Shown: piece after piece, positions 519-32,123 of the stretch
Layout of the letters: every line of letters starts with the position of its first letter
Position numbering within the stretch: position 1 is the first letter of the stretch
DNA from: a virus
DNA: 32,123 bases
Reading direction: 5' to 3' (one strand)
Virus record (IMG/VR): IMGVR_UViG_3300045988_082739
Program-made: the position numbers and the translations under genes
The notes under the pieces: generated by a model
Told to the model about the DNA's origin: nothing
The model's input: the letters and a program-made list of their open reading frames with translations, nothing else
Databases searched by the model: none

Positions 519-1769
519 ATGGCAATTGGACGAACGAACGCGGTCGGCAAGGCGGGGACGCAGTTCTCCCTTGTCGTGACCGTAGAGACCGGCTCCCTCG
601 TGACCGCGACAAAGGGCTCGCGGAGCGTGAGCGGGACGGCGGTAAATGGCTCGTGCGTGCTGACGCTCCCGGAGGCCGGGACGTGGACAGTTACCGCGAC
701 CCGGAGCGGGCAGACCTCGGACACAAAGACCGTGAGCGTGGTCGACAGCTACGCGGTAACGCTCACGTTCTTCTCGGCGACGATTACCGTTACCGCGCCC
801 TCCGGCGCTACCGTGACGCTCAAAAAGGGCGGCTCCACGGTGGACAGCAAGACGAGCACCGGCACGGCGGTATTTACCGTCTACGAGACCGGCGAGTACA
901 CCGTCGAGGCCACGCAGGGCGGGCAGAGCACGAGCGGCACGGTAAACGTCGTCTCCTCGACGACCTCCTATGCGATTACCCTCTCTTTCGTGAGCGACAC
1001 GCTCAACGAAAATAGTTGGGACACCATTTCCGAGGTCTCCGACGCGGGAGAGGGCGCGAACTATTGGGCCATCGGCGACCGAAAGCAAGTTACCCTCAAC
1101 GGAACGGTCGGGAGCCTATCCCTCTCGAATTTCTCGACCTACGCTTTTATCATCGGGTTCAATCACAACTCGAGCCGCGAGGGTTCGGGCCGTATCCATT
1201 TCCAGCTTGCAAAGACGGCCCTCTCCGGCGGGAAGGACATTTGCTTTACCGACGGCTCCTATAACTCGTCCGGCTCCTCGGCGGCGTTCCGCATGAACAC
1301 GAGCAACACCAACTCCGGCGGGTGGGAGGACTCGTACATGAGGAATAATATTTGTGGTACGAGCAAGTCGACGACCTCGGGCCGCATTATGGGAGCTATA
1401 CCCGCCGAACTCCGTAACGCGCTCAAGAGCGTTACAAAGTACACGAATAATAACGGGAGTAGCTCAGCCTCGAGCGCCGTCACCGCGACCACAGATTACT
1501 TTTTCCTCCTCTCGGAGTACGAGGTATTCGGGAATATCACATACTCGAACAGCTACGAGGCAAATTATCAACAGCAATACGCCTACTACTCCGCCGGAAA
1601 CAGCAAGGTCAAATACCGGCACAACAGCACAGGGAGCGCCGCTTATTGGTGGCTCCGGTCCCCGCGTGCGGGCAGCTCCGGCACTTTCGTGAGTGTGTAC
1701 ACCGGCGGCACAGTCAGCTACGACAACGCGTACATTTCGCTCGGGTTCGCGCCGGGCTTTTGCGTATAA
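519..1769 (+). CDS. DGR target protein 1 / putative receptor-binding protein: two Ig-like beta-rich repeats plus a C-terminal WWLRSP-type (DUF6273 / C-type-lectin-like) variable domain
   Basis: The ATG lies 4 nt after the fibre stop. Internal repeats are GTWTVTATRSGQTSDTKTVSVV and GEYTVEATQGGQSTSGTVNVV. The C-terminus YWWLRSPRAGSSGTFVSVYTGGTVSYDNAYISLGFAPGF carries VR1. Confidence 0.85.
   Translation: MAIGRTNAVGKAGTQFSLVVTVETGSLVTATKGSRSVSGTAVNGSCVLTLPEAGTWTVTATRSGQTSDTKTVSVVDSYAVTLTFFSATITVTAPSGATVTLKKGGSTVDSKTSTGTAVFTVYETGEYTVEATQGGQSTSGTVNVVSSTTSYAITLSFVSDTLNENSWDTISEVSDAGEGANYWAIGDRKQVTLNGTVGSLSLSNFSTYAFIIGFNHNSSREGSGRIHFQLAKTALSGGKDICFTDGSYNSSGSSAAFRMNTSNTNSGGWEDSYMRNNICGTSKSTTSGRIMGAIPAELRNALKSVTKYTNNNGSSSASSAVTATTDYFFLLSEYEVFGNITYSNSYEANYQQQYAYYSAGNSKVKYRHNSTGSAAYWWLRSPRAGSSGTFVSVYTGGTVSYDNAYISLGFAPGFCV
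1637..1756 (+). repeat. DGR variable repeat VR1
   Basis: Aligns without gaps to TR 2299..2418 (offset 662). There are 15 differences at TR adenines and 1 at a TR thymine (TR 2320 T vs 1658 G). The 3' 21 nt ttcgctcgggttcgcgccggg is invariant. Confidence 0.9.
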
Positions 1770-1781
1770 TTAGGGCTTTCG

Positions 1782-1808
1782 GAATTGCGCCCTCAATGGG
1801 CGCAATTC
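1782..1808 (+). promoter_or_regulatory. Perfect 11-bp hairpin (gaattgcgccc / gggcgcaattc) with a TCAAT loop, 25 nt after VR1; candidate DGR target-recognition hairpin/cruciform
   Basis: The inverted repeat was read directly. No T-tract follows it. It has the same loop and closing C-G pair as the hairpin after VR2. Confidence 0.6.
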
Positions 1809-1838
1809 TCCGGCCAGACACAGGAAAGGGGCGAAAGA

Positions 1839-2258
1839 ATGAGCGTGCCGAAATCACGGCGGGGCGAGAGCCCCGCGCAGTATATCGACCTCGCCCGCGA
1901 GATATATGTCTTTACCTATAACCGCGTGCGGCTTTTGCCGAAAGCCTATACGTTCTATTTCTCCTTGCCGCTATACAACGCGGCGCGGACGGCCTACCGG
2001 CTCGTCAAGACGGCAAACCTCATTTACATAGACCCGAAACAAGAGGGCCCGGTCGTGGAGCGCAATAAACAGCGCCGCCGGGAGCTCTACGAGAACGCGC
2101 AGGGCTATTATAACAATATGCTCGACGTGCTCGACCTCGCGTTTATGACCGTCAATCACGAGAAGATACCGCCGTCCGTTCTGAAACAGTGGGTCGGTAT
2201 GATTACCGACGAAATCTATCAAATTTCCAAAATCAAGCGGAGCGACAAAGGCCGATAG
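1839..2258 (+). CDS. avd: DGR accessory variability determinant (Avd-like basic four-helix-bundle protein), 139 aa
   Basis: It sits between the target gene and the TR, as in the canonical BPP-1 mtd-avd-TR-brt order. The protein is small, basic and predicted helical (AQYIDLAREIYVFTYNRVRLLPKAYTFYFSLPLYNAARTAYRLVKTAN). ATG 1839 has GGAAAGGGG upstream. The listed TTG start at 1785 lies inside the hairpin. Confidence 0.7.
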   Translation: MSVPKSRRGESPAQYIDLAREIYVFTYNRVRLLPKAYTFYFSLPLYNAARTAYRLVKTANLIYIDPKQEGPVVERNKQRRRELYENAQGYYNNMLDVLDLAFMTVNHEKIPPSVLKQWVGMITDEIYQISKIKRSDKGR

Positions 2259-2298: not shown

Positions 2299-2418
2299 CG
2301 CCGCTAATTGGTGGCTCCGTTCCCCGAATGCGGGCAACTCCAACAATTTCGTGAATGTGAACACCGACGGCACAGTCAACAACAACAACGCGAACAATTC
2401 GCTCGGGTTCGCGCCGGG
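2299..2418 (+). repeat. DGR template repeat (TR), 120 nt with 30 adenines and 13 in-phase AAY codons
   Basis: It lies in non-coding DNA between avd and the RT and is homologous to VR1 and VR2. When phased on the VR frame it reads ANWWLRSPNAGNSNNFVNVNTDGTVNNNNANNSLGFAPG. The similarity weakens after 2418 (gggAtttcgc in the TR versus gggCtttt / gggCtttg in the VRs). Confidence 0.9.
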
Positions 2419-2658
2419 ATTTCGCATAAGCCAGACCGATTAACTCCTTGAGAGCTAAAGCCGTGCGTATGCAAAAGGGGGATACGACCTCTCCGACCGC
2501 CCGCAAGGGCACGACGACAAACTGATAGCTCGACACGGAGGGCCGGACGCTCCTTGCATGGCGGCGGCGTGCGCGTTTGCCGCCGTTTCATGGCCTCACC
2601 GTTACGCAATTTAGACAACGCGCCGAGAAAGAATTGTGCGAGGTATTTTTATTTTGTT
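2299..2658 (+). ncRNA. Putative DGR RNA (TR plus about 240 nt spacer upstream of the RT)
   Basis: By analogy with the BPP-1 TR-Sp RNA. No credible ORF is present: the - strand ORFs 2219..2536 and 2376..2618 overlap the TR. Local stems are present (ggcggc..gccgcc near 2560-2590). The boundaries are not determined. Confidence 0.45.
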
Positions 2659-3774
2659 ATGAACAGTGCAGAAAGACACGAGGCAAGATACCAACGGCGG
2701 CGGGCCGCGCGGCTCGAGAAAAGGGCGAGGGACACAAAGGAGCTCGGAGATTTCGAGTCGGTTTTTTCGTTCGAGCACCTATACGCGGCCTACCGCGCGT
2801 CGGTAAAGGGTGTCGGGTGGAAAGCGAGCACGCAGAGATACAAGGCGAGCGCCCTCGCGAACATCGACAAGACACACAACGCACTATTGAGCGGGACGTT
2901 CAAGCCGAAAGGCTTTTACGAGTTCGATATTATCGAGCGCGGAAAGCCTCGGCATATTCGGAGCGTCCACATAAGCGAGCGCGTCGTCCAGCGGTGCCTA
3001 TGCGATTACTCCCTTGTCCCTATGCTCTCCCGGTCGTTCATCTACGACAACGGGGCCAGTTTGCAGGGCAAGGGATACGATTTCGCCGTCCGCCGGGTGA
3101 CGCGGTTCCTCGCGAAACACTATCGCCAGCACGGGCGGGAGGGCTACGCGCTGGTATTTGATTTCTCGAAATACTTTGATACCGCGCAACACGCGCCGGT
3201 ATTTAGGGCTATCGAGAAAAGCGGTATCGACGACCGGCTCGTCGCCCTCTCCGAGTATTTTATAAAATGCTTTGGGGACGAGGGGCTCGGGCTCGGGAGC
3301 CAAGTCTCGCAAATTGCCGCTATCGCCCTCCCGAACAAAATCGACCATTATATCAAGGACGTTTTGCGGATGAAGTTCTACGAGCGGTATATGGACGACG
3401 GGCTCATTATCAGCCGGTCGAAAGAAAAGCTCCGGGAGTGCCTCGAGGCTCTCCGGCGGCTTTGTGCCGAACACGGGATAAAGCTCAACGAGAAAAAGAC
3501 GCAGATCATCAAGCTCACGCGGGGCTTTACGTTCCTAAAGGTGCGGTTCCGATACGGAAAGACGGGAGCGGTCGTCCGGCGTGCCAGCTATAAGAGCGTC
3601 CGGCAAATGCGGAAAAAGCTAAAGATTTTCCGGCGGTGGGTGGACTCCGGGCGTATGGAGCCGGAGGACGTTCGCGCGTCGCTCACATCATGGAGCGGGT
3701 ACATGAGGAGATTTCACTCCTATTTCGCCGTTCAATCAGTCATGCAGAAATACCGCGAGCTTTTCGCGGCATAG
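2659..3774 (+). CDS. DGR reverse transcriptase (371 aa from ATG 2659; alternative upstream starts at 2554/2590)
   Basis: RT motifs are LVFDFSKYFDT (A), LGLGSQVSQIAAIAL (the DGR-typical [I/L]GxxxSQ), YERYMDDGLII (YxDD), LNEKKTQII and GFTFLKV. The gene is directly downstream of the TR. Confidence 0.9.
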   Translation: MNSAERHEARYQRRRAARLEKRARDTKELGDFESVFSFEHLYAAYRASVKGVGWKASTQRYKASALANIDKTHNALLSGTFKPKGFYEFDIIERGKPRHIRSVHISERVVQRCLCDYSLVPMLSRSFIYDNGASLQGKGYDFAVRRVTRFLAKHYRQHGREGYALVFDFSKYFDTAQHAPVFRAIEKSGIDDRLVALSEYFIKCFGDEGLGLGSQVSQIAAIALPNKIDHYIKDVLRMKFYERYMDDGLIISRSKEKLRECLEALRRLCAEHGIKLNEKKTQIIKLTRGFTFLKVRFRYGKTGAVVRRASYKSVRQMRKKLKIFRRWVDSGRMEPEDVRASLTSWSGYMRRFHSYFAVQSVMQKYRELFAA

Positions 3775-4185: not shown

Positions 4186-4500
4186 ATGTATAAAGTCACG
4201 GTCGACGGAGTTTTCGCCGGATACTCCGATACGGCGGTTTTCGTCCGGCTCCACGAGAACGGGTGCTATATCCCTTGTGAGGAGACGGAGGCCGAGGGCG
4301 TATGCGTAAAGCTCCCCTACGAGTTCCAAGACGACGAGGGGAACACGGTACGCACGGTCGAGGATATTGTTTTCTCACTCACGGAGGGCGGCTTATCCGG
4401 CATTGAACAGGTGGCGGAGCTCGAACACGCGAGCGGGCCGCTCATGCTCTCGGAGGCCGAGGCCGTCGTCGATATTCTGTTAGGAGGTAGCGGAGAATGA
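4186..4500 (+). CDS. Hypothetical acidic protein (104 aa)
   Basis: GAGGAGG RBS upstream. The stop overlaps the next start (ATGA). Confidence 0.6.
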   Translation: MYKVTVDGVFAGYSDTAVFVRLHENGCYIPCEETEAEGVCVKLPYEFQDDEGNTVRTVEDIVFSLTEGGLSGIEQVAELEHASGPLMLSEAEAVVDILLGGSGE

Positions 4501-4910
4501 TTACACGGGAAAGAGCGCGGGAACTCCGGGCCGTTATCGAAAGCGCGGTATCCGCATACGGGCTCGACGACGCGGCGGCGGTCGCGGTCGTGGAGCTTTT
4601 CCCTCAATGGGAGGTCGGGAAAACATATGCCATCGGAACAAGGGTACAGCACGACGGAAAGCTCTACGAGTGCGTCAACGCGCACACGGCGGCGGCGGAG
4701 TGGAGCCCGTCGGTCGCCGCCTCCCTTTGGGACGAGGTTAAAGTCGACCCGGAAACGGGATATGACGAGTGGCAACAGCCGTCCGGCGCTCACGACGCAT
4801 ACAACACCGGCGACCGTGTTGTCTATAATGGCTCCGTGTACGAGAGCCTTATCGACGGCAACGTATGGGCCCCGGACGCATACCCGGCAGGGTGGAAAAT
4901 CGTCGAATGA
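4497..4910 (+). CDS. Protein with two CBM5/12-like carbohydrate-binding repeats
   Basis: Two copies of the pattern Y..G..V..(D/N)G.(L/V)YE......W.P....(L/G)W: YAIGTRVQHDGKLYECVNAHTAAAEWSPSVAASLW and YNTGDRVVYNGSVYESLIDGNVWAPDAYPAGW. Confidence 0.5.
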   Translation: MITRERARELRAVIESAVSAYGLDDAAAVAVVELFPQWEVGKTYAIGTRVQHDGKLYECVNAHTAAAEWSPSVAASLWDEVKVDPETGYDEWQQPSGAHDAYNTGDRVVYNGSVYESLIDGNVWAPDAYPAGWKIVE

Positions 4911-5795: not shown

Positions 5796-6011
5796 GTGAA
5801 CAAGAACATCGTAAAGCGGCTCGCCGCCCTCTTGAGCGTCAAGAGCATTGTAACGCTCTTGCTCTCCGGGGTATTCGCCTACCTCGCAATTACGGGGAAC
5901 ACGAGCCAAGAGTTTATGACCGTCTACACGGTCGTTATCGCGTTCTATTTCGGAACGCAGACGCAGAAAATCAGCGACGCGGTAGCACAGAGCGAGGAGG
6001 GCAAGGAATGA
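5796..6011 (+). CDS. Holin (71 aa, 2 TM helices)
   Basis: GTG 5796 lies 7 nt after AGGAGG (5783-5788). TM segments are IVTLLLSGVFAYLAI and FMTVYTVVIAFYFG. ATGA overlap with the endolysin start. Confidence 0.6.
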   Translation: MNKNIVKRLAALLSVKSIVTLLLSGVFAYLAITGNTSQEFMTVYTVVIAFYFGTQTQKISDAVAQSEEGKE

Positions 6012-6823
6012 ACTTGCACAAGTGCATTTTGACAAGGAACGATTGCTATACCTCCGGGCGGACGATTACGCCGCGCGGCGTTATGGTACATTCGACCGGG
6101 GCGAATAATCCGACCCTCCGCCGGTACGTCCAGCCGGACGACGGACTATTAGGGGACAACAGGTACGACAACGATTGGAACAGGCCGGGAACGGGCGCTT
6201 GTGTTCATGCCTTTATCGGAGAGCTCGCCGACGGCTCCGTCGCGACCTATCAGACCTTGCCGTGGAATTGGCGCGGGTGGCACGCCGCCTCCGGCCCGAA
6301 CGGGAGCGCGAACAACACGCATATTTCTTTCGAGATTTGCGAGGACGGTCTCGACGACCCCGTTTATTTTGCGAAAGTCTATCAAGAGGCCGCGGAGCTG
6401 ACCGCGTACCTTTGCAAGCTGTACGGCCTCGACCCGGAGGCCGACGGGGTAGTTATCTGCCATAGCGAGGGGCACACGCGCGGTATCGCCTCAAATCATG
6501 GGGACGTTATGCACTGGTTCCCCCGGCACGGTAAAAACATGGATGATTTCCGGGCGGAAGTCGCCCGGCTTATCAAAAATCAAAGCGGAAAGGATGAATT
6601 GGACATGACAAAAGAGGAGCTCGTTTCTTGCGCTGGTACAGGCGACAACCCCTCCGGGTGGGCTCGTGAGCACACGGAGTATTGCAAGCAAAAGGGCATT
6701 TTCGCCGGAGACGGAGCGGGTAACTACGGTTGGCAACAGCCGATTACCCGAGAGGCCGTCGCGACCATCGTACACCGCGCTCTTGAGGTCGCGGGACTTG
6801 CCGACAGTATCCCGGACGCATAA
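6008..6823 (+). CDS. Endolysin: N-acetylmuramoyl-L-alanine amidase (Amidase_2/PGRP-like) with a C-terminal SLH-like wall-binding segment
   Basis: Motifs MVHSTGANNP, CVHAFIG, WHAASGPNGSANNTHISFEICED and ICHSEGH. The C-terminal GIFAGDGAGNYGWQQPITREAVATIVHRAL resembles an SLH motif. Confidence 0.8.
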   Translation: MNLHKCILTRNDCYTSGRTITPRGVMVHSTGANNPTLRRYVQPDDGLLGDNRYDNDWNRPGTGACVHAFIGELADGSVATYQTLPWNWRGWHAASGPNGSANNTHISFEICEDGLDDPVYFAKVYQEAAELTAYLCKLYGLDPEADGVVICHSEGHTRGIASNHGDVMHWFPRHGKNMDDFRAEVARLIKNQSGKDELDMTKEELVSCAGTGDNPSGWAREHTEYCKQKGIFAGDGAGNYGWQQPITREAVATIVHRALEVAGLADSIPDA

Positions 6824-6968: not shown

Positions 6969-7511
6969 CTACTTTTTGAAATAGACCGCAATATCGAGGC
7001 CGTAGTTTGCACGCTCCCCGTCGCTATCCTCGTACACAAAGCCGCCGGTAACGTCGTAGGACTCGACCCTCTCGAAACGGTCTATTTGCGAGAGCGCCCG
7101 CTTGAGGTCGCCGGTCGAGATACTCCCGACTTGCTCCTCGCCGTAGAACACGCCGACGGCGGGCTTGCCCTCGAAATCATACTTTCGGAGGGAAAAAGAG
7201 TACGTCGAGGGCTCCTCCCGTTTGATTTCCCGGAGTATCGTTTGACGGCTCCGGCCTCCGGGGTTCTTGAATGTCACGCCGACGACCCGGAATATCTCCC
7301 GGTTTAGGGTGGCGCGGTATGCCTCCTCCCGCCGCCGGGCCTCCTCCCTCTCGGCCTCTTTCCGGGCTTTCTCCTCGGCCTGGAGCCGTGCGGCCTCCGC
7401 CGCCTCTTTCTTGAGCTCGTTCTTTTTCCATAGCCGGTATATGAGTACGCAGATACCGACCGGGTAGAATATGACGAGTAAGACGATTTGCCACGTTTTG
7501 AGCTTTTTCAT
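6969..7511 (-). CDS. Membrane-anchored protein: N-terminal TM helix, charged coiled coil, HIRAN-like C-terminal domain (paralog of 24795..25346)
   Basis: MKKLKTWQIVLLVIFYPVGICVLIYRLWKK, then an E/K/R-rich helix, then FRVVGVTFKN..RSRQTILREI...GKPAVGVFYGEEQVGSIS. It has its own promoter. The HIRAN call is pattern-based only. Confidence 0.7.
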   Translation of the reverse strand: MKKLKTWQIVLLVIFYPVGICVLIYRLWKKNELKKEAAEAARLQAEEKARKEAEREEARRREEAYRATLNREIFRVVGVTFKNPGGRSRQTILREIKREEPSTYSFSLRKYDFEGKPAVGVFYGEEQVGSISTGDLKRALSQIDRFERVESYDVTGGFVYEDSDGERANYGLDIAVYFKK

Positions 7512-8517: not shown

Positions 8518-9564
8518 ATGGCACGGGCGAAATATAAGCAACTCGATAGAGACCGGCGGCTCCAAATGGAGGCGCTCTTTCGGGCCGGTCTAAAGCCTCG
8601 CGCGATTGCGGAGCAAATCGGGTGCCATATCTCGACCGTGTATCGGGAGTTCCGGCGGGGCGAGTATGAGCACCTAAACAGCGATTACACCACGGAGCGC
8701 CGGTACAGCGCAGACAAGGCCGAGGCCCTCCACCAACTCAACGCGACCGCGAAAGGGGCCCCGCTCAAGATAGGGAAAAACTTTGCCGTCGCGGAGTTCA
8801 TCGAGGGGAAGATAAAGGACGACAAATACTCCCCGGCGGCGGTATGCGCCCTCTTGCGGACGGAGGAGTACGCTCATTTCGGTATCACCTTTTGCCGGGC
8901 CACGATTTACAAGTATATCGAGGACGGGAATATCTTTCCGAACATCACGAACAAAGACCTCCCGGAAAAAGGCGAGCGCAAGCGGGAGTATAACAGGGTG
9001 CGGGAAAAGAAAGAGCCTCGGGGCCGGAGTATCGAGGAGCGGGCGGCGGAGGTCGACGAGCGGCAAGAGCCGGGGCATTGGGAAATGGATAGCGTCCTCG
9101 GAAAGAAAGGGACAAAGGCGCGGCTCCTCGTCCTCTCGGAGCGGGTGACGCGGAGCGAGATTATCATAAAGATACAGGACGGGCGGGCGATTACGGTCGT
9201 CCGGGCCCTCGACCGCCTCGAGCGGGAGCTCGGAGACCTTTTCCCCGTGATATTCAAGTCGATAACGTGCGACAACGGCTCCGAGTTCGCGAATTGGGCC
9301 GGTATCGAGCGTAGCGTATGGAAACGAAAGGGACAGCGGACGACGGTTTATTTCTGCCATCCGTACACCGCTTGCGAACGAGGCACGAATGAGAACATAA
9401 ACAGAATGATACGCCGCCACTTCCCGAAAGGTACGGATTTCGGGAAAGTGACGGCGGCGGAGGTAAAGCGAGTCGAGCGGTGGATTAACACCTATCCGCG
9501 CGAGATTTTAGGCTTTTCGTCCTCCGCTGATATGTTCGCGGAGGCGTTTGGGCGGGCCTCTTGA
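8518..9564 (+). CDS. IS30-family DDE transposase / integrase (348 aa)
   Basis: N-terminal HTH (AIAEQIGCHISTVYREFRRGE). Catalytic region HWEMDSV ... ITCDNGSEFANW ... HPYTACERGTNENINRMIRRHFPKGTDF, the typical IS30 DD(33)E signature. No flanking inverted repeats could be found by eye. Confidence 0.85.
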   Translation: MARAKYKQLDRDRRLQMEALFRAGLKPRAIAEQIGCHISTVYREFRRGEYEHLNSDYTTERRYSADKAEALHQLNATAKGAPLKIGKNFAVAEFIEGKIKDDKYSPAAVCALLRTEEYAHFGITFCRATIYKYIEDGNIFPNITNKDLPEKGERKREYNRVREKKEPRGRSIEERAAEVDERQEPGHWEMDSVLGKKGTKARLLVLSERVTRSEIIIKIQDGRAITVVRALDRLERELGDLFPVIFKSITCDNGSEFANWAGIERSVWKRKGQRTTVYFCHPYTACERGTNENINRMIRRHFPKGTDFGKVTAAEVKRVERWINTYPREILGFSSSADMFAEAFGRAS

Positions 9565-9604
9565 CGTGTTTTATATTTTTTTATAGCTTTTTCGCAAAAA
9601 ATAC

Positions 9605-9633
9605 TTGACATTCGGGGTCGCGCCGTTTATCAT
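9605..9633 (+). promoter_or_regulatory. Promoter TTGACA - 17 nt - TATCAT (probable early promoter) with an A/T-rich upstream tract
   Basis: Read directly. It is followed by an imperfect palindrome attgcg...cgcaat (9635-9666). Confidence 0.55.
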
Positions 9634-9704
9634 TTATTGCGTAAGAGCTATACAGCTCGAGCGCAATATTTTTTTACACAAAAACAGATTGGAGGCGTTG
9701 AAAA

Positions 9705-9950
9705 ATGGCTGGAAATTGTCTGACGCTCGCCGACCGCCGGGAAATCGAGCGTCTCTACGCCGCCGACAAAAAGCCGAGTGAAATTGCGGAGGCGGTCGGC
9801 GTGTCGGTCGCCACGATATACCGCGAGCTCAAGCGCGGCGAGACGGGCGGCTTAAACGGTAACTATTGCCCGGCATACAGCGCGGAGAGCGCGGAGAAAG
9901 CCGTCCGCCGGTCTATGAGAAACAGAGGCCGTAGGAAACAGGTGGGATAA
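9705..9950 (+). CDS. Standalone IS30-type HTH protein (81 aa), paralogous to the N-terminus of the 8518 transposase
   Basis: LADRREIERLYAADKKPSEIAEAVGVSVATIYRELKRGE..YSAESAEKA compared with RRLQMEALFRAGLKPRAIAEQIGCHISTVYREFRRGE..YSADKAEAL. Confidence 0.7.
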   Translation: MAGNCLTLADRREIERLYAADKKPSEIAEAVGVSVATIYRELKRGETGGLNGNYCPAYSAESAEKAVRRSMRNRGRRKQVG

Positions 9951-10468: not shown

Positions 10469-10979
10469 AGCGGCATTGTTGAAAAAGATACGGGCTCTCG
10501 CAGAGCGAGGAGTCGGAGGAGAGGCGGACAATGCCGAGGAAATACTCCGGCGGCTCATGAAGAAATACGGCGTGTCAGAGGACGAGCTCGACGAGGCGGA
10601 GCGACGGAGACACGACTTTGAGTTTCACGGGAAAGAGCAAGAAAAGCTCTTGAGACAGGTCGTTTACAAGGTAACGGGAGGGTACGCATATAACCTCGTT
10701 TATGGAGCGACCGGGAGGAAAGTAAAAACACAACTCGGAGCGGATTGTACCGCCGCCGAGAAAGTAGAAATCGAGTTCCTTTTTGATTTTTACTCAAGAC
10801 TATGGGAACGGGAGCGAAAAGCATTTCTCGAGGTGTTTATCCAAAAGCACCGGATTTTTGCTATTCGAGACGACATAGAGCCGCGAGAGGTATCAAGAGA
10901 GGAAATATTAAAAATGCAAGCCCTAATGATGGGAATGAGTGACGAGTCACCCGTTCGAGCGATTGAGGCCGGAAAATGA
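10461..10979 (+). CDS. Hypothetical protein with a DUF2786-like N-terminus (172 aa, GTG start)
   Basis: LLKKIRALAERGVGGEADNAEEILRRLMKKYGV resembles the DUF2786 helical motif. Confidence 0.55.
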   Translation: MDKAALLKKIRALAERGVGGEADNAEEILRRLMKKYGVSEDELDEAERRRHDFEFHGKEQEKLLRQVVYKVTGGYAYNLVYGATGRKVKTQLGADCTAAEKVEIEFLFDFYSRLWERERKAFLEVFIQKHRIFAIRDDIEPREVSREEILKMQALMMGMSDESPVRAIEAGK

Positions 10980-12339: not shown

Positions 12340-12566
12340 AGAACGAGAAAAGCCGCCCGGCGGAGTACCGGCCTACCGCGAGCGGGCCCATGAAATTATA
12401 CCTCGTCCGGCATAAGGACGGGCAGGAAATCACGGTAAACGGTCGGAACAGGTACGAGGCCGTTACCGCCGCCGCCAGAAAATGGGGCGTGCGGTGGACA
12501 AGCATAGCTCGGGCGTGCGAGTTTATCGAGCTCGCCTCCGAGGACGAGGAGGAAACAGCACCATGA
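12336..12566 (+). CDS. Hypothetical protein (76 aa)
   Basis: ATGA coupling at both ends. Confidence 0.5.
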   Translation: MKNEKSRPAEYRPTASGPMKLYLVRHKDGQEITVNGRNRYEAVTAAARKWGVRWTSIARACEFIELASEDEEETAP

Positions 12567-13186
12567 CAGCAAGAGAACAGCGCCAGCAGAGGCGCAGAGT
12601 CCGCGCTATCCGGCGGCGGGTCGCCGGTATGCTCGCTTTGTTGACCGTCCTCGCCGCCCTTGTGCTCTATGCGGCCTCCTATACATGGACGGAGCCGGAG
12701 GACAAGCTCGACCCGCCGGAGATAGACCCGCTCCCGACCACTACGGTAACGACCGTCGAGGCCGCGCCGCCGGTAACACTGGCTCCCGTGGCGGAGTCGG
12801 AGGCCGTCTCCCGGTACGCCGGTATCGAAATAAGCGACGAGGACGTTTATACCCTCGCTTGCCTCGCCTATCACGAGGCACGGGGCGAGCCGTTCGAGGG
12901 GCAGGTCGCCGTTATCGAGGTCGTGCTCAATCGGTGCTTGTCCGACTACTTCCCGGATACGGTCGAGGAGGTCGTATTTCAGAAGTACGGCGACGTATGG
13001 CAGTTCTCCCCCGCTCCATATCTCTACACAGCGGAGCCGACGGAAACGCAGTACGAGGCCGTCTATGCCGCACTCGCGGCGGAGGAGCCTATCCTCCCTC
13101 TCGATACGGTGTACTTTTCCACGGGGCCCTATAACGACAGCATTGTCGCGGTTATAGGAAATCATTACTTTTGCTCAATTTTTTAA
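12563..13186 (+). CDS. Membrane-anchored SleB-like cell-wall hydrolase (Hydrolase_2 family), 207 aa
   Basis: N-terminal Arg-rich segment plus TM helix (MLALLTVLAALVLYAA). Catalytic-domain pattern LACLAYHEARGEPFEGQVAVIEVVLNR...VEEVVFQKYGDVWQFS. Confidence 0.7.
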   Translation: MTAREQRQQRRRVRAIRRRVAGMLALLTVLAALVLYAASYTWTEPEDKLDPPEIDPLPTTTVTTVEAAPPVTLAPVAESEAVSRYAGIEISDEDVYTLACLAYHEARGEPFEGQVAVIEVVLNRCLSDYFPDTVEEVVFQKYGDVWQFSPAPYLYTAEPTETQYEAVYAALAAEEPILPLDTVYFSTGPYNDSIVAVIGNHYFCSIF

Positions 13187-13199
13187 GGAGGGTGCAGTT

Positions 13200-13835
13200 A
13201 TGAACATCACGCGCAGAGTTACGGAGGCCGTCGATTTCGAGTACATGAAAGCGGCTATCGACGCAGGAAACGGCCCGGAGTTCGTGAGACCGTTCGACGA
13301 GCTCGTTATCCCGCTCGAGAACGGAAAAGTCGTTACCGCTGTATGCGGCGGATATGCGGGAGACCGACGGGCCCGGTTCGTGCTCAAGGATTGCTTACCG
13401 GAGCTCCACGTCATGAACAAGAGCACGACCAACGCGGGCGGCTATTTCAAGAGCGAGGGGAGGCGGCACGTCCTCGAGGACATTCTCCCGCTCTTTCCGG
13501 CATGGATCCGGGACGCTATGAAACCCCGTAGCATGGTCGAGGTTATAGACGGAGAGGAAATCGTCTACTCTGACGCGCTTTGGGTGCCGTCGGCGACCGA
13601 CGTATTCGGGCCCGGCGATTATTGGGCCGAGGAGCGAGACAGTGAGCAACTCGAGATTTTCAAGACGGAGCGGGGCCGCGTAAAAGAGGTCGAGGGACGG
13701 GGGACGTATTATTGGTGGCTCCGTTCCCCGCGTGCGGGCAACTCCTACCGTTTCGTGAGTGTGGTCACCGGCGGCACAGTCTACTACAGCGGCGCGTACG
13801 ATTCGCTCGGGTTCGCGCCGGGCTTTGACCTGTAA
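13200..13835 (+). CDS. DGR target protein 2 (211 aa, DUF6273 / C-type-lectin-like domain only, no signal peptide seen)
   Basis: The C-terminus YYWWLRSPRAGNSYRFVSVVTGGTVYYSGAYDSLGFAPGF carries VR2. AGGAGGG RBS upstream. Confidence 0.85.
   Translation: MNITRRVTEAVDFEYMKAAIDAGNGPEFVRPFDELVIPLENGKVVTAVCGGYAGDRRARFVLKDCLPELHVMNKSTTNAGGYFKSEGRRHVLEDILPLFPAWIRDAMKPRSMVEVIDGEEIVYSDALWVPSATDVFGPGDYWAEERDSEQLEIFKTERGRVKEVEGRGTYYWWLRSPRAGNSYRFVSVVTGGTVYYSGAYDSLGFAPGFDL
13709..13822 (+). repeat. DGR variable repeat VR2
   Basis: Aligns without gaps to TR 2305..2418 (offset 11404). All 17 differences are at TR adenines, with no other mismatch. Confidence 0.9.
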
Positions 13836-13851
13836 AATTCGGAATTAAAAG

Positions 13852-13878
13852 CCCTCCCCGGCTCAATGCTGGGGAGGG
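13852..13878 (+). promoter_or_regulatory. 11-bp hairpin (ccctccccggc / gctggggaggg, one G-T pair) with a TCAAT loop, 29 nt after VR2
   Basis: Read directly. It has the same loop and closing C-G pair as 1782..1808 but an unrelated stem sequence. No T-tract follows. Confidence 0.6.
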
Positions 13879-14732: not shown

Positions 14733-14793
14733 CGAGGGAGGAGGGAGCGCGAGGGAGGAGGGAGGGGGCGGTCTATGAGCCCTCCTCCCTCGC
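14733..14793 (+). repeat. Iteron-like element upstream of rep: two direct 15-nt copies cgagggaggagggag (14733-14747, 14750-14764) and an inverted copy (14780-14793) forming a 14-bp perfect stem
   Basis: Read directly. The region lies in a 270-bp stretch with no convincing ORF, next to an AT-rich patch at 14561-14590. Confidence 0.6.
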
Positions 14794-14819
14794 AACGGGT
14801 AACACTCGGAGGGTGCAGA

Positions 14820-15596
14820 ATGAGGACAGTCTATCGTGAAAAGCGGTATTATTGCGGGGAGTACCTCGACGTATTTATTTTCCCGGTTTATAGCTCGGGA
14901 AAGAAAGGGTCGAGAGGAAAACGGGGAAAGCCAACCTCCGCCGCACAAAAGAAACTCAATCAGCGGCACAGGGAGGAAAAGCTCGTTCGGCTCCTCCATG
15001 CCAACTTTACGCCGGAGGATTTAGAATTGCACTTGACGTATGCGGAACAGCCGGAGGACGACGAGGCCGCGAAACGGGAGCTCGCGAATTTCCTCCGCCG
15101 GGTGCGCCGGTATCGGAAAAAGAACGGCCTCCCGCCGCTGAAATATATCGCTGTGACGGAGCGCGGGAAACGGGGCGGTCGCTATCACCACCACGTCACG
15201 ATAAACGGGGGTATCGACCGGGATGTTTTAGAAAGCCTTTGGGGGCTCGGCTATGCCAACTCCCGCCGCTTGCAGTTCACGGAGAACGGCCTCGCCGGTC
15301 TCGGAAATTACATCGTGAAAAGCCCGGTCGGGGGCAAGGCGTGGAACGCCTCGAAAAACCTCGTCGACCCGGAGCCGAGGACGCGGGACGGGCATATCTC
15401 CGCCCGCCGTGCTCGGGAGCTTTCGCAGGACACGACGGACAACACGGAGTTTGAAAAGCTCTATCCGGGGTATTTTCTCTCGGAGGCCGGGGCTTTCCAC
15501 AACGACGTGAACGGCGGATATTACATAATCGCGAGATATTACCGCAAAGACGGGGTATTTATCAAACCGAAACGGAAACGGAGGGCTCGAAAATGA
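14820..15596 (+). CDS. rep: Rolling-circle-type replication initiator (HUH endonuclease superfamily), 258 aa
   Basis: Motif 1-like LELHLTYA, HUH motif RYHHHVTING and Tyr motif GLGNYIVKSP. GGAGGG RBS 5-6 nt upstream of ATG 14820. Confidence 0.55.
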   Translation: MRTVYREKRYYCGEYLDVFIFPVYSSGKKGSRGKRGKPTSAAQKKLNQRHREEKLVRLLHANFTPEDLELHLTYAEQPEDDEAAKRELANFLRRVRRYRKKNGLPPLKYIAVTERGKRGGRYHHHVTINGGIDRDVLESLWGLGYANSRRLQFTENGLAGLGNYIVKSPVGGKAWNASKNLVDPEPRTRDGHISARRARELSQDTTDNTEFEKLYPGYFLSEAGAFHNDVNGGYYIIARYYRKDGVFIKPKRKRRARK

Positions 15597-24794: not shown

Positions 24795-25346
24795 TTACGC
24801 TTGTTCAGCCTTGCGGAAAAGGCATTTCACGATTGCTCCGTACTTCATGGAGCGGCCCTCGGAGTCTGTACCGCCCCCGGAAACGTCGGCGGAAATCACG
24901 CCGATATAGTCGCGCCAGCGGTCAAGGAAAAACGGTATGTCGTCTTTACCGATATTCCCGATTTGCTGACCATTTACGAAAATCGGGAAAGCGGGACTAC
25001 CCTCGAACTCACCGCGTTCTATCGTTATCTCTATGTCGTCCCCATCAAATGGAGGGTCTCCCCATTTCAGCTTTCGCAAAATGGATTGCCGGGAGTGACC
25101 GTCCTCGTTTTTGAAGGTAACGCCGACGACCTTAAAGGGGATTTCCTCGCGGGAGGAGAGCTTGGCTTTTATACGGGCCCGTCTTTCGTTCTCCTCGCGC
25201 TCTTTTGCCTCCCGGCGGACGCGGATAGCCTCCTCCATTTCCGACTTGATTTTCTTCTTTTTCCATAGCCGGTAAATGAGGACGCAGATACCGACCGGGT
25301 AAAAAATCACGAGCAAGACGATTTGCCAGACCTTTAATTTTTTCAT
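24795..25346 (-). CDS. Membrane-anchored protein: TM helix, charged coiled coil, HIRAN-like domain (paralog of 6969..7511)
   Basis: MKKLKVWQIVLLVIFYPVGICVLIYRLWKK (28 of 30 residues identical to the other copy), then FKVVGVTFKNEDGHSRQSILRKL...GSPAFPIFVNGQQIGNIG. It has its own promoter and terminator. Confidence 0.75.
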   Translation of the reverse strand: MKKLKVWQIVLLVIFYPVGICVLIYRLWKKKKIKSEMEEAIRVRREAKEREENERRARIKAKLSSREEIPFKVVGVTFKNEDGHSRQSILRKLKWGDPPFDGDDIEITIERGEFEGSPAFPIFVNGQQIGNIGKDDIPFFLDRWRDYIGVISADVSGGGTDSEGRSMKYGAIVKCLFRKAEQA

Positions 25347-25452: not shown

Positions 25453-28212
25453 ATGGCAACACGCACCGTATCAACGAAACTCGCTATCCAAGGCGAGGAG
25501 CAGTATAAAAGCTCCATAAAGACGATTAACTCGACCCTCGCAACGCTGAAATCGGAGCTAAAGCTAACAGAGTCGCAGTTTGCAGGACAGGCAAACAGCC
25601 TCGAGGCATTAGAGGCCAAAGGCGAGACCCTCTCCAAAATGTACGAGGAGCAGGAAAAAAAGCTCAAGACCCTAAACGAAGTCGTATCAAAGGCCCGCGA
25701 CATTCAACAGGCATACGCCGATAGAGTCGAGCGGGCACAGGAAAACGTAAGTAAGTGTAAAGAGGCCCTCGACTCGCTTGCAAACGAGACAGGGGATACG
25801 AGCGCCGAGCAGGAAAAACTTGAGGCGGCGCTTAAGGCCGCGAACGACGAACTCGCAGAGGCTCAAAAGCACTATGACGAGGCTACGAGGAAAACAAACT
25901 CCTATCAGTCGCAACTAAACAGCACGGAGACCGCACTAAATGCGTTGGGGCGGGAAATCGACGACAATAACCGCTATCTCGACGAGGCCCGGAGTTCTAC
26001 GGACAAGTGCGCGAGCTCTATCGACGAGTACGGGAAAGAGGTCAAGGACGCGAGTAAAGAGACCGACTCTTTCGGCGAAAAGCTCAAGGGCGGACTCGTG
26101 ACCGGGGCAAAAGCCGCCACGACCGCGCTTGCGGCGGTCGGCGCGGCGGCGGTCGCCGGGGTGGGCGTGCTCCTCAGCCTCGCGGAGTCTACGGAGGAAT
26201 ACCGGGCCGCACAGGGGCGGTTAAATACCGCGTTCACGGCGGCGGGATACTCCACGGACACGGCGACGGAGGCGTATCGTTCCCTTTATGCCGTGCTCGG
26301 GGACACCGACACGGCGACGGAGGCGGCACAACTCCTCGCACAGCTCGCGACCTCCGAAAAGGACGTTGCAACGTGGGGCGATATTGCCGCCGGAGTATCC
26401 GGCACGTTTGGCGACGCGCTCCCGATAAACTCGCTCATTGAGGCGGCGAACGAGACGGCAAAGGTCGGCACAGTGACCGGGGCCCTCGCCGACGCTTTGA
26501 ATTGGGTCGGTATCAGCGAGGACGAGTTTAACGAAAAGCTCGCCGCGTGTGCCGACGAGACAGAGCGAGCAAACCTTATCACGGAGACCCTCTCCTCCAC
26601 CTACAAGGACGCGGGCGAGATTTTCAAGGAAAATAACGCCACGATTATGGAGGCGCGGGAGGCTCAAGCAGAACTCGACGACACGCTCGCCCGGCTCGGC
26701 GGGACGGTCGCCGACGTGAAAAACGAGCTCGTAGCGGAGTTCGCCCCGGCCCTCGCCGACGTGGTAGACGCTTTCGTCGACGTGATAAACGGGGTAGACG
26801 GCGCGGAGGAGGCGCTCGGAGAGGCTATCGACGGCATGATAGGGCAAGCCGCCGACAAGCTCCCGGAGCTCCTCGAGTTCGGTACGACTATCGTACTCAA
26901 CATTTTAGAGGGCATTGTGAACGCGGCTCCGCAACTTGCGGAGGCCGCGATTTCTGTACTCACCACACTAACGGAGGGGCTCGTATCAGCCCTCCCCCAG
27001 CTCGCCGAGGCCGCTATTCAAATCGTGAACGGGCTCGCAACGGGTATCGCCGAGGCGCTCCCGTCCCTCATTCCGGCGGCGGTGGCGGCTATCACGCAGT
27101 TAGTACAAACGCTGATAGAGAATATCCCCCTACTCGTCGACGCGGCGTTACAGCTCGTGACAGGGCTCGCGACGGGCATTATCGAGGCTATCCCGGTATT
27201 GCTCGAGGCGCTCCCAACGCTGATAGAGAGCCTCGTTACGGCGCTCCTCGAGGCCGTGCCGCAAATCATCGAGACGGGCGTTACCCTCTTGACGGCCCTC
27301 GTAACAAACCTCCCGGACATTATCGCGACGATATGCGAGGTATTGCCGCAAATCATCCAGTCGACCATAGATACCTTGCTCTCGCACTTGCCGGAAATCG
27401 TAGAGGCAGGGGTCGAGCTCTTAACGGCGCTCATTACCAACCTACCGCAAATTATCTCGACCATCGTACAGGCGCTCCCGCAAATCATTACCTCTATCGT
27501 CTCGACACTGGTAAACAATATCCCGAAAATAGTCGAGACCGGCGTAAAGCTCTTGACCTCCCTTATCACCAACCTACCGCAGATTATCTCCTCGCTTGTG
27601 GCGGCTATGCCGCAAATCATTTCGAGCATGGTATCGGCACTCGGGCAGGGCGTGAGCGCCTTTGCACAGGTGGGCGCAAACCTTGTCCAAGGGCTTTGGA
27701 GCGGTATTCAATCCCTCGCCGGGTGGCTATGGGATAAGGTCTCCGGGTGGATTTCCTCCATTTGGGACGGTATCACGGGCTTTTTCGGTATCTCCTCGCC
27801 GTCTAAAAAAATGGCGTGGGTCTCCGAAATGAATATCGAGGGCGCGGCTCGCGGTATCGAGCAGAACAAGGGCCGGGCGGTAAAAGCCTACGGAGATATG
27901 ACCGCCGAAATGCTCGACGAGGTAGAGTCGGGCATGAGGAAAGTGAATACCGCCCTCGCCGACGGTATCGGGGAAATGGAGACGGGCTTTTCCGCCCGCG
28001 CCACGATTGAACAGGTCTCCGCCGCCGTGCCGAGCATGGCAGACCGCCGCAGAGGGTCGGAGACGGCCTCCGGCGGGACGACGACGGTAACGAACACGTT
28101 CCATATCGGCGAGCTCGTCGTCCGCGAGGAGGCGGACGTAAAGCGCGTCGCAAAGGAGCTCTACAATATGCAACGCGCGAAATCTCGCGGAAAGGGGGTC
28201 GTTACCTCGTGA
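25453..28212 (+). CDS. Tape measure protein (919 aa)
   Basis: Length, position, an N-terminal coiled coil, and a central helical array with recurring LP(Q/E)II / TNLPQII motifs roughly every 20 residues (about 26950-27650). Confidence 0.9.
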   Translation: MATRTVSTKLAIQGEEQYKSSIKTINSTLATLKSELKLTESQFAGQANSLEALEAKGETLSKMYEEQEKKLKTLNEVVSKARDIQQAYADRVERAQENVSKCKEALDSLANETGDTSAEQEKLEAALKAANDELAEAQKHYDEATRKTNSYQSQLNSTETALNALGREIDDNNRYLDEARSSTDKCASSIDEYGKEVKDASKETDSFGEKLKGGLVTGAKAATTALAAVGAAAVAGVGVLLSLAESTEEYRAAQGRLNTAFTAAGYSTDTATEAYRSLYAVLGDTDTATEAAQLLAQLATSEKDVATWGDIAAGVSGTFGDALPINSLIEAANETAKVGTVTGALADALNWVGISEDEFNEKLAACADETERANLITETLSSTYKDAGEIFKENNATIMEAREAQAELDDTLARLGGTVADVKNELVAEFAPALADVVDAFVDVINGVDGAEEALGEAIDGMIGQAADKLPELLEFGTTIVLNILEGIVNAAPQLAEAAISVLTTLTEGLVSALPQLAEAAIQIVNGLATGIAEALPSLIPAAVAAITQLVQTLIENIPLLVDAALQLVTGLATGIIEAIPVLLEALPTLIESLVTALLEAVPQIIETGVTLLTALVTNLPDIIATICEVLPQIIQSTIDTLLSHLPEIVEAGVELLTALITNLPQIISTIVQALPQIITSIVSTLVNNIPKIVETGVKLLTSLITNLPQIISSLVAAMPQIISSMVSALGQGVSAFAQVGANLVQGLWSGIQSLAGWLWDKVSGWISSIWDGITGFFGISSPSKKMAWVSEMNIEGAARGIEQNKGRAVKAYGDMTAEMLDEVESGMRKVNTALADGIGEMETGFSARATIEQVSAAVPSMADRRRGSETASGGTTTVTNTFHIGELVVREEADVKRVAKELYNMQRAKSRGKGVVTS

Positions 28213-31595: not shown

Positions 31596-32123
31596 ATGGC
31601 AGAACTCGTAACAATGTACCCGGCGCAGGCAAACACGCCGGAGACCACGCTCGCCGGGTCACTGACGACCACGGGGACGAGCGTTACCGTCCTCGACGGC
31701 TCCGTATTGCCGGAGGCCCCGAACTATCTCACCATCGGGGCAGACTCCGCAACGGCGGAAACGGTGCTCATGACGGCAAAGAACGGGAACGACCTCACTA
31801 TCACGCGGGGCCAAAACGGGACAGCGGCCCGCGCGTGGGGCAAGGGCGATATTATCGGTCGATACTTCACGGCGGCAGACCATGACGCGCTACGGGAAAA
31901 TATCGAGACCCTCAACACGGAAAAGCCGGATAGGGTCGCGAGCCCCGTCGACGGGAACTTTGTCGCATTCGACGGCACGACCGGCGCGCAGAAAGACAGC
32001 GGCAAGAAAGCGGCGGATTTCGCCGCCGCAAATCATACCCACACCGGGAAAGCCGATAAGGTATCCGGCGCGACCTCCGGCAACTTTGCCGGGCTCGACG
32101 GGAACGGCAACCTCACGGACAGC
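31596..32123 (+). CDS. Tail fibre protein, 5' portion (open to the window end; continues at base 3)
   Basis: ATG 31596 follows GGGAGG. There are 176 codons without a stop. The ORF is absent from the track because it has no stop inside the window. Confidence 0.8.
   Translation, partial: MAELVTMYPAQANTPETTLAGSLTTTGTSVTVLDGSVLPEAPNYLTIGADSATAETVLMTAKNGNDLTITRGQNGTAARAWGKGDIIGRYFTAADHDALRENIETLNTEKPDRVASPVDGNFVAFDGTTGAQKDSGKKAADFAAANHTHTGKADKVSGATSGNFAGLDGNGNLTDS
32056..32123. repeat. Terminal overlap identical to 1..68 (circular closure of the assembly; genome unit 32,055 bp)
   Basis: Exact 68-nt identity read directly. The same 68-mer also occurs at 124..191 because it lies inside the 123-nt tandem repeat. 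Confidence 0.8.

Follow-up and report, generated by a model that had tools for sequence, protein, structure and literature searches.

Diversity-generating retroelements (DGRs) of phages are usually read as switches of tail-fiber tropism. Here, we analyze IMG/VR virus record IMGVR_UViG_3300045988_082739, a stretch of 32,123 nucleotides from a gut phage (the window), in which a single DGR has, in addition to a large target gene at the end of the tail module, what is very probably an active second target, the gene at 13200–13835 in the early module.

Cornuault et al. described two variable repeats (VRs) in phage Shimadzu, one of them in orf43, and showed by experiment that both undergo mutation; ~2% of virion reads had 10–15 A-type mismatches at each of the two VRs, and all five ultravirulent isolates from mice had mutations in both (bioRxiv 10.1101/575076). 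In the Faecalibacterium phages Lelie (Toutatisvirus) and CP11, Gulyaeva et al. 2024 reported “large” and “small” DUF6273 targets, with variation at both VRs across 37 cognate genomes in the case of CP11, and called the function of the targets “not entirely clear” (PMC11792537). The second VR gene of Toutatisvirus is located 17,480 nt from the template repeat (TR), and is a core gene that is kept where the DGR has been lost (bioRxiv 10.1101/2024.10.15.618418). Baykov et al. 2023 described the gut-phage DGRs nd4 and nd12, in which a tentaclin is accompanied by a small, DUF6273-only tgt2 (PMC10743442), and Wu et al. 2018 cataloged numerous phage-associated DGRs whose targets are not adjacent but lie within 50 kb, in the same prophage (PMC5758913). 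The arrangement of a large tail target plus a small remote DUF6273 target is already published, and the window is a further case of it. What may be useful here is a target-site signature shared by the two targets, and the early/replication location of the small targets across unrelated Clostridia phages.

The DGR of the window and its two targets consist of the following elements.

519–1769, plus strand: large DGR target, 416 aa, at the tail-module end; its C-terminal domain is DUF6273, and VR1 spans 1643–1760.
1839–2258, plus strand: Avd-like accessory open reading frame (ORF), 139 aa, basic (pI 9.8), between the VR1 target and the TR; position, size, and pI fit such an assignment.
2299–2422, plus strand: TR, with 31 adenines in 2305–2422, 29 of which occupy the first or second codon position, and 13 Asn codons.
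2426–2666, plus strand: structured RNA, Rfam RF03077 “RT-2 RNA”, 130 bits (gathering score 40), full-length match.
2554–3774, plus strand: DGR reverse transcriptase (RT), longest ORF, with its likely start at ATG 2659; RVT_1 6.6e-20, phrog_1423 1.5e-82.
13200–13835, plus strand: small stand-alone DUF6273 (C-type-lectin-like) target protein, 211 aa, pI 5.0 (acidic), Pfam PF19789.
13709–13826, plus strand: VR2, the VR of the second DGR target, codons 171–209 of the 211-aa ORF, an ungapped match to the TR.

The likeness to Shimadzu (LR596903) extends from the protein to its surroundings. Its orf43 encodes a homologous small DUF6273-only protein (209 vs. 211 aa, tblastn 2e-9, 32% identity) with a C-terminal VR, and this gene belongs to the early/replication region, at a distance from the TR/RT cassette. 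A weak Hydrolase_2 gene is found two genes upstream, and a larger tail-side target lies beside the cassette. However, Shimadzu is a 45-kb Roseburia myovirus with an Erf, SSB, and DnaC replication module, in which orf43 lies between methyltransferases, which separate it from the hydrolase gene, and Erf/SSB, whereas the window represents a siphovirus-type phage of ~32 kb with Oscillospiraceae as hosts and a Rep of rolling-circle type. Lelie and CP11 share with the window one TR and two VRs, both targets having a DUF6273 domain with a C-terminal VR, and the small target being remote; no Toutatis/Lelie homologs of the window were found by tblastn at E < 1e-3 with two different queries. In nd4 and nd12, one TR likewise serves two targets, tgt2 consists of one globular DUF6273 domain whose VR is C-terminal, and adenine variation affects both VRs in related genomes, but both targets lie within the cassette and target 1 has an N-terminal VR and Ig domains. 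A tentaclin, with an N-terminal C-lec domain carrying the VR and with Ig-like domains, is not what the window encodes, as the VR of its large target is C-terminal and no Ig domain is present. The remote targets surveyed by Wu et al., and those of Treponema denticola, resemble VR2 in that they differ by A-to-N changes only from a TR elsewhere in the genome and, in phage-associated DGRs, lie within 50 kb; the phage module of remote targets and the nature of small targets were not analyzed in that survey.

The repeat relationship itself is confirmed. The original prediction had placed a gap-free match to TR 2305–2418 at 13709–13822 with 17 differences, all on TR adenines, and our alignment reproduces it (30 A in the tract). 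The homology extends four bases further, to 2422/13826, and includes an extra difference at TR 2419, an A-to-C change common to VR1 and VR2. Over the full repeat (13709–13826 vs. 2305–2422), all 18 of 18 mismatches fall on adenines, of which there are 31 in 118 nt, and the hypergeometric chance of A-only mismatches is 2.6e-13 (1.6e-12 for the shorter tract predicted originally). VR1 differs from the TR by 16 A mismatches and one non-A mismatch. When both strands were scanned with A mismatches tolerated, only three copies of the repeat were found in the window (VR1 at 1643, TR at 2305, and VR2 at 13709), and the window holds a single RT and a single TR. The proposals that the small target is remote from the TR and that one TR feeds two targets in different modules are both borne out, with VR1 on the tail side and the VR2 gene 11.4 kb away, in the early operon and outside the structural module.

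The TR translates as NWWLRSPNAGNSNNFVNVNTDGTVNNNNANNSLGFAPGF, and the RT-2 RNA occupies the gap between the TR end and the RT start codon; the RF03077 match implies that the RT starts at ATG 2659 and not at the upstream TTG, and the RNA is probably the DGR spacer RNA that primes cDNA synthesis. LGxxxSQ is a motif that marks DGR-type RTs, and the translated RT contains LGSQVSQ as well as YMDD. The ORF at 1839–2258 is assigned as Avd-like from context only. In the large target, DUF6273 makes up the C-terminal 160 aa.

VR2 is also diversified in nature. Relatives were found by scanning IMG/VR for the shared 3′ end of the repeat, and in related contigs (six IMG/VR loci from five contigs) the TR with 70 nt of flank is 100% identical to that of the window, and two of these contigs carry all three copies in the same layout. 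Among eight distinct copies of VR2, 28 of the 31 A sites carry a change in one copy or more, compared to 3 of 87 non-A sites, all three at the extreme 5′ edge, and mean pairwise differences are 18.8. The six distinct copies of VR1 give nearly the same picture (30/31 A sites, 2/87 non-A sites, mean pairwise differences 18.7). The original prediction had raised the case of an invariant VR2 beside a varying VR1; instead, VR2 varies as much as VR1, and at A sites. At the protein level, the 90% cluster of the window and a neighboring cluster of 1,496 members have near-identical scaffolds and a VR that is different in every sequence, and some 90%-identity clusters have thousands of distinct members. 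In ten pairs of database proteins, the 179-aa scaffolds are identical and 10–16 of 32 VR residues differ. The columns with at least five residue types (178, 181, 183, 184, 187, 189, 195–198, 200, and 201) are exactly the TR Asn codons, and in 33 homologs down to 59% identity the scaffold is strongly conserved while the same 12 columns are hypervariable. Together, these patterns imply active diversification of VR2 in nature, with purifying selection acting on its scaffold. Diversification of the two VRs is independent. Substitutions shared between VR1 and VR2 of one genome gave no signal of a common ligand or a common cDNA, with A-site identities of 16, 15, and 9 within genomes and 11–15 between them (n = 3).

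Each VR is followed by its own set of candidate target-site elements, as listed here.

1778–1809, plus strand: VR1 target-site element, TTCGGAATT and an overlapping hairpin GGAATTGCGCCC-TCAAT-GGGCGCAATTCT.
13838–13878, plus strand: VR2 target-site element, TTCGGAATT at 13838–13846, then the hairpin CCCTCCCCGGC-TCAAT-GCTGGGGAGGG at 13852–13878.

VR1 and VR2 both end in GGGTTCGCGCCGGGCTTT (GGGCTTT), whereas the TR ends in GCCGGGATTT (GGGATTT), which looks like the difference between an initiation of mutagenic homing (IMH) site and its IMH* counterpart; the GC-rich VR end is IMH-like, with a putative function in setting the 3′ limit of mutagenesis. The nonamer TTCGGAATT occurs twice in the 32-kb window, at 1778 and 13838, each time just past a VR. 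The two hairpins have an identical 5-nt loop, TCAAT, on stems of 11–12 bp that are unrelated in sequence, and the DNA folds with z = −4.5 after VR1 and −3.6 after VR2. In the region after the TR there was no fold (z = +0.8), no TCAAT hairpin, and no TTCGGAATT. Among relatives at 53–84% protein identity, the loop and inner stem are invariant and the outer stem changes in a compensatory manner (CCCT/AGGG, GCT/AGC, CTT/AAG, ATT/AAT). We considered and rejected plain terminators as the identity of these hairpins, as there is no T-run after either.

In BPP-1, it is the structure and not the sequence of the hairpin stem that counts, and the loop is sequence-specific (PMC3240598). The pattern at VR1 and VR2 fits this rule, and judged by its sequence VR2 would carry a complete recipient site of its own. 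The window and BPP-1 also share adenine-specific TR-to-VR transfer, a VR at the C-terminus of a lectin-like binding domain, and an IMH-like 3′ end that is rich in GC and precedes a hairpin of free stem sequence and specific loop. They differ in that BPP-1 has a single, adjacent target, which is a virion tail-fiber protein, and in that its loop is GAAA and not TCAAT; searches of PDB sequences gave no similarity to Mtd or Avd. The hairpin signature is not described in the Lelie, CP11, and Toutatisvirus papers. In our most distant relative (locus L027, 53% identity, Clostridiaceae MAG S33_Bin4), the hairpin after the VR (10634–10700) is CCCCGGAGC-GAAA-GCTCCGGGG, so that the loop of BPP-1 stands in place of TCAAT; this locus is without the TTCGGAATT motif and without the neighbor genes of the window’s group. 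The combination of TTCGGAATT and a TCAAT-loop hairpin offers a simple means of finding remote targets, which metagenome surveys limited to RT-adjacent VRs miss, as acknowledged by Roux et al. (PMC8144416).

By analogy with retrohoming in BPP-1, the system would operate as follows. The TR (2299–2422) would be transcribed together with the adjacent structured RT-2 RNA, and the RT (2659–3774), probably with the Avd-like protein, would make an adenine-mutagenized cDNA. This cDNA could then replace either recipient site, VR1 or VR2, each of which would be defined by GC-rich 3′ homology ending in GGGCTTT, the TTCGGAATT motif, and a downstream TCAAT-loop hairpin or cruciform with a free stem sequence. 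At VR2, replacement would recode 12–13 Asn codons on the C-terminal face of the 211-aa DUF6273 protein, and with 15 residues available per AAY codon, more than 10^14 VR2 variants would be possible.

The small protein is simple in its organization. Its ORF has a strong ribosome-binding site (AAGGAGG, 6 nt upstream), and DUF6273 (PF19789) is its sole domain (aa 72–204, 42.9 bits vs. a cut-off of 23.5), which agrees with the one-domain description given originally. Neither a transmembrane (TM) segment nor a signal anchor was found, the most hydrophobic of the 19-residue windows reaching a Kyte-Doolittle value of 1.02, and domain-profile searches detected no tail-attachment domain, so that the original statements on both points stand. 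DUF6273 has been assigned as a C-lec domain in the literature (PMC10743442). The AF2 model (pLDDT 67, pTM 0.73, below 50 in the VR region) can be superposed along its entire length on further small DUF6273 proteins from BFVD. Overall, similarity between the VR2 protein and the C-terminal domain of the VR1 target is 37%, mostly within the VR, and it is weak outside the VR; this weak scaffold similarity indicates that the two are old paralogs and not products of a recent duplication.

Several points weigh against the view of 13200–13835 as an active, early-expressed target of lectin-like fold. The evidence for diversification is confined to related contigs and database proteins. In the VR2 hairpin of the window, a single G-T pair (GCTGGGG) interrupts a stem that is perfectly paired in relatives, and this pair might lower homing efficiency at VR2. 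The Avd-like ORF has no match in Pfam, NCBIfam, or PDB. The case for early expression is built on gene order plus a single promoter consensus match. Comparing the AF2 model with PDB by Foldseek returned nothing meaningful (best E = 0.33, Rad50), an HMM profile of the small-target family found nothing among PDB sequences, and the mediocre AF2 model does not directly support a C-type-lectin fold for the protein.

The same type of small target recurs well beyond the window. The family comprises 671 homologous clusters at E < 1e-3, with lengths of ~210 aa or ~285 aa, and PF19789 is present in all of 120 listed homologs except P0038. The extra ~75 aa of the longer variants showed no hydrophobic stretch and nothing recognizable (read from the sequences; domain libraries were not searched). 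Oscillospiraceae and further Clostridia serve as hosts, and part of the copies reside in integrated prophages. A tblastn comparison places a Hydrolase_2 gene upstream of the small target at 12 of 14 related loci, as do the gene calls in L030; it is directly adjacent in most, and in L025 and L026 (both among the 12) a gap of ~220 nt lies between the two genes. Within the window’s group, the small target is always a few small genes (3–5) upstream of Rep. No adjacent hydrolase accompanies the small target in L015, L027, or the Acutalibacter phage Fontainebleau.

A further observation concerns L026 (14716–20488, on a 162-kb contig of Oscillospiraceae bacterium B35_35_AM_H), where the prophage has apparently lost the region from mid-capsid through the tail. 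A 410-aa homolog of the VR1 target (71% identity) comes immediately after TerL, portal, protease, and an ORF of capsid size (320 aa), and the small VR2-type gene is kept upstream.

The original prediction suggested looking for the same remote-target layout in other phages, and it is found in Shimadzu, Fontainebleau, and Dulem virus 34. In Fontainebleau (L033, ON453893), VR2 (9801–9917) is located 25 kb from the TR (35106–35222), in an ORF of 189 aa (9330–9899) flanked by DNA polymerase I and a helicase, and VR1 is at 34391–34507; mismatches are A-specific, and the repeat ends show the same GGC/GGA (A/C) contrast as in the window. Its GenBank record has no DGR repeats annotated and labels the 189-aa ORF as hypothetical. 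In Dulem virus 34 (PP511788), the small target is a 221-aa ORF upstream of rep, with the TR ~14.8 kb away and VR1 in a 900-aa Ig-domain tail protein, and an SLT transglycosylase precedes the small target by five genes. The two-target DGR of this virus is likewise unannotated.

The following features of the window define the neighborhood of the VR2 gene.

8518–9564, plus strand: IS30-family DDE transposase in the integrase position, NCBIfam NF033563, 231 bits vs. a cut-off of 80.
9605–9633, plus strand: putative promoter-like site, TTGACA-17-TATCAT, 11/12 consensus match, in front of the early operon with the VR2 target.
12482–13186, plus strand: membrane-anchored Hydrolase_2 (SleB-like) cell-wall hydrolase, PF07486 1.3e-15, TIGR02869, TM segment at aa 47–65.
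14775–15596, plus strand: rolling-circle-type replication initiator Rep, PF23343, phrog_3584 7.6e-77, marking the early/replication module.

A rightward operon begins at 9605 with an HTH gene and several unknowns, and continues with Hydrolase_2, the VR2 target, three small ORFs, Rep, a MazG-like gene, HNH, and TerS. The structural genes follow in the order TerL (17457), portal, protease, capsid, tail, TMP, Dit, and a Tal-like gene ending at 31580. The VR1 target, Avd-like ORF, TR, and RT stand at the end of the tail module, and are followed by small ORFs, an amidase endolysin (6008–6823), and two minus-strand genes. This gene map agrees with the original placement of the VR2 target among early genes and outside the tail module, and directly after a membrane-anchored SleB-like hydrolase. 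The distance to rep had been given as several kb and is in fact 0.9 kb. The Hydrolase_2 gene stops 13 nt before the start codon of the VR2 target, and the two are probably co-transcribed. With this gene and the canonical amidase endolysin, the window encodes two cell-wall hydrolases.

The ends of the window overlap (bases 63–191 = 31995–32123, 98%), with 123-nt tandem units at 1–246, and the genome is circular or terminally redundant at ~31.9 kb; the break in the contig interrupts a gene with repeats, located after the Tal-like gene and before the VR1 target (1–246 and 31933–32123). In a megablast against GenBank phages, 25 kb of the window returned a single 5-kb fragment of the capsid-tail region at 77% identity, which indicates that there is no close named relative among them. 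The 8518–9564 gene, whose counterpart in L030 has rve plus HTH domains, does not encode a tyrosine or serine recombinase, and in the integrated relatives L015 and L021 the early operon lies directly after host genes, consistent with an attachment site beside the IS30-type gene. Two minus-strand genes, 6969–7511 (180 aa, in the lysogeny region) and 24795–25346 (183 aa, antisense in the tail module, between the tail chaperone and tape-measure genes), encode paralogs that are 45% identical and almost identical over the first 30 residues, a predicted TM helix; they could be membrane morons expressed by the prophage. The gene at 4497–4910 on the plus strand, just downstream of the RT and ahead of the lysis genes, codes for a protein of 137 aa that includes two carbohydrate-binding modules (CBM_5_12). 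The tape-measure gene contains three 132-nt internal repeats (27259–27641), and the 3′ part of the Tal-like gene has four 24-nt repeats (30932–31051) that encode a Gly/Ser/Thr-rich segment.

What the small protein binds with its variable face is a separate question from whether it is diversified, and a non-virion reading of the VR2 protein is much less certain than its standing as an active target. Most seriously to be weighed against that reading is a normal virion component whose gene happens to lie off-module, i.e., a receptor-binding head on the tail fiber or Tal, like Mtd of BPP-1 or gp38 of T-even phages, and we give this a substantial minority share of the probability. DUF6273 domains are the C-terminal heads of long tail- or fiber-like proteins, and the AF2 model of the 211-aa protein superposes on the C-terminal part of such proteins in BFVD, including a 730-aa “tail-collar fiber protein” (TMq 0.70). 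VR1 and VR2 are written from one TR and so have the same binding-surface design, and published opinion leans to receptor binding (bioRxiv 10.1101/2024.10.15.618418; PMC10743442). However, the protein has no N-terminal attachment domain, its gene has an early/replication location in at least four unrelated lineages (the window’s group, Shimadzu, Fontainebleau, and Dulem virus 34), and VR1 and VR2 of the same genome are no more alike than those of different genomes (n = 3), which gives no sign of a shared ligand.

The neighboring hydrolase suggests another possibility, namely that the small lectin-like protein is a trans-acting, variable wall-binding subunit of the SleB-like enzyme, the two forming a two-part lysin tunable by the DGR. 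The recurrent position of Hydrolase_2 upstream of the small target, including the 13-nt gap in the window, is in keeping with this, as are the weak Hydrolase_2 gene of Shimadzu and the transglycosylase of Dulem virus 34. Nevertheless, the N-terminal anchor of the hydrolase would put its catalytic domain outside the cell, while neither a TM segment nor a signal anchor is present in the lectin-like protein, and three of the small targets described above have no adjacent hydrolase. The phage already has a canonical amidase endolysin in its lysis cassette, and any interaction between the two proteins would be conjectural, so that we consider this reading improbable. That VR2 is a decayed, disused remnant left by an old homing event or by duplication of a VR1 domain is effectively refuted and keeps a very slight probability, since although a single genome cannot tell old from ongoing mutagenesis, the VR2 hairpin has its one wobble pair, and Gulyaeva et al. 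found no read-level VR variation in Lelie or CP11 cultures (PMC11792537), the TR is identical and VR2 different in every related genome with changes confined to A sites, proteins of identical scaffold have 10–16 VR differences, the IMH-like end and hairpin are kept with compensatory stem changes across relatives at 53–84% protein identity, and the weak similarity of the two targets outside the VR speaks against a recent duplicate.

The remaining probability lies with the small target as a non-virion binder, either intracellular or released at lysis. We infer that the VR2 protein would be expressed early and would act as a soluble ligand binder and not as part of the tail. For example, it may serve as an adaptive binder against variable host defense or surface-synthesis proteins, or as a factor released at lysis. 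PADLOC gave no match for the small target, the hydrolase, or their neighbors, a result of little weight because its library consists of defense proteins and not counter-defense ones. More broadly, we tentatively propose that the small stand-alone DUF6273 targets could form a distinct, widespread class of early, cytoplasmic or soluble, non-virion hypervariable binders, a generalization that we hold as possible and not as the likelier outcome. Such a class would explain why these genes are retained in replication and anti-restriction neighborhoods in at least four unrelated Clostridia phage lineages, and why VR2 has a full target-site signal of its own so far from the cassette.

In the window, the cassette that rewrites the tail-side target also rewrites a small, non-structural-looking protein among the early genes, and the small-target class to which this protein belongs is common in gut Clostridia phages. 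If it is true that the small target is not a virion component, phages would be using programmed hypermutation beyond adsorption.

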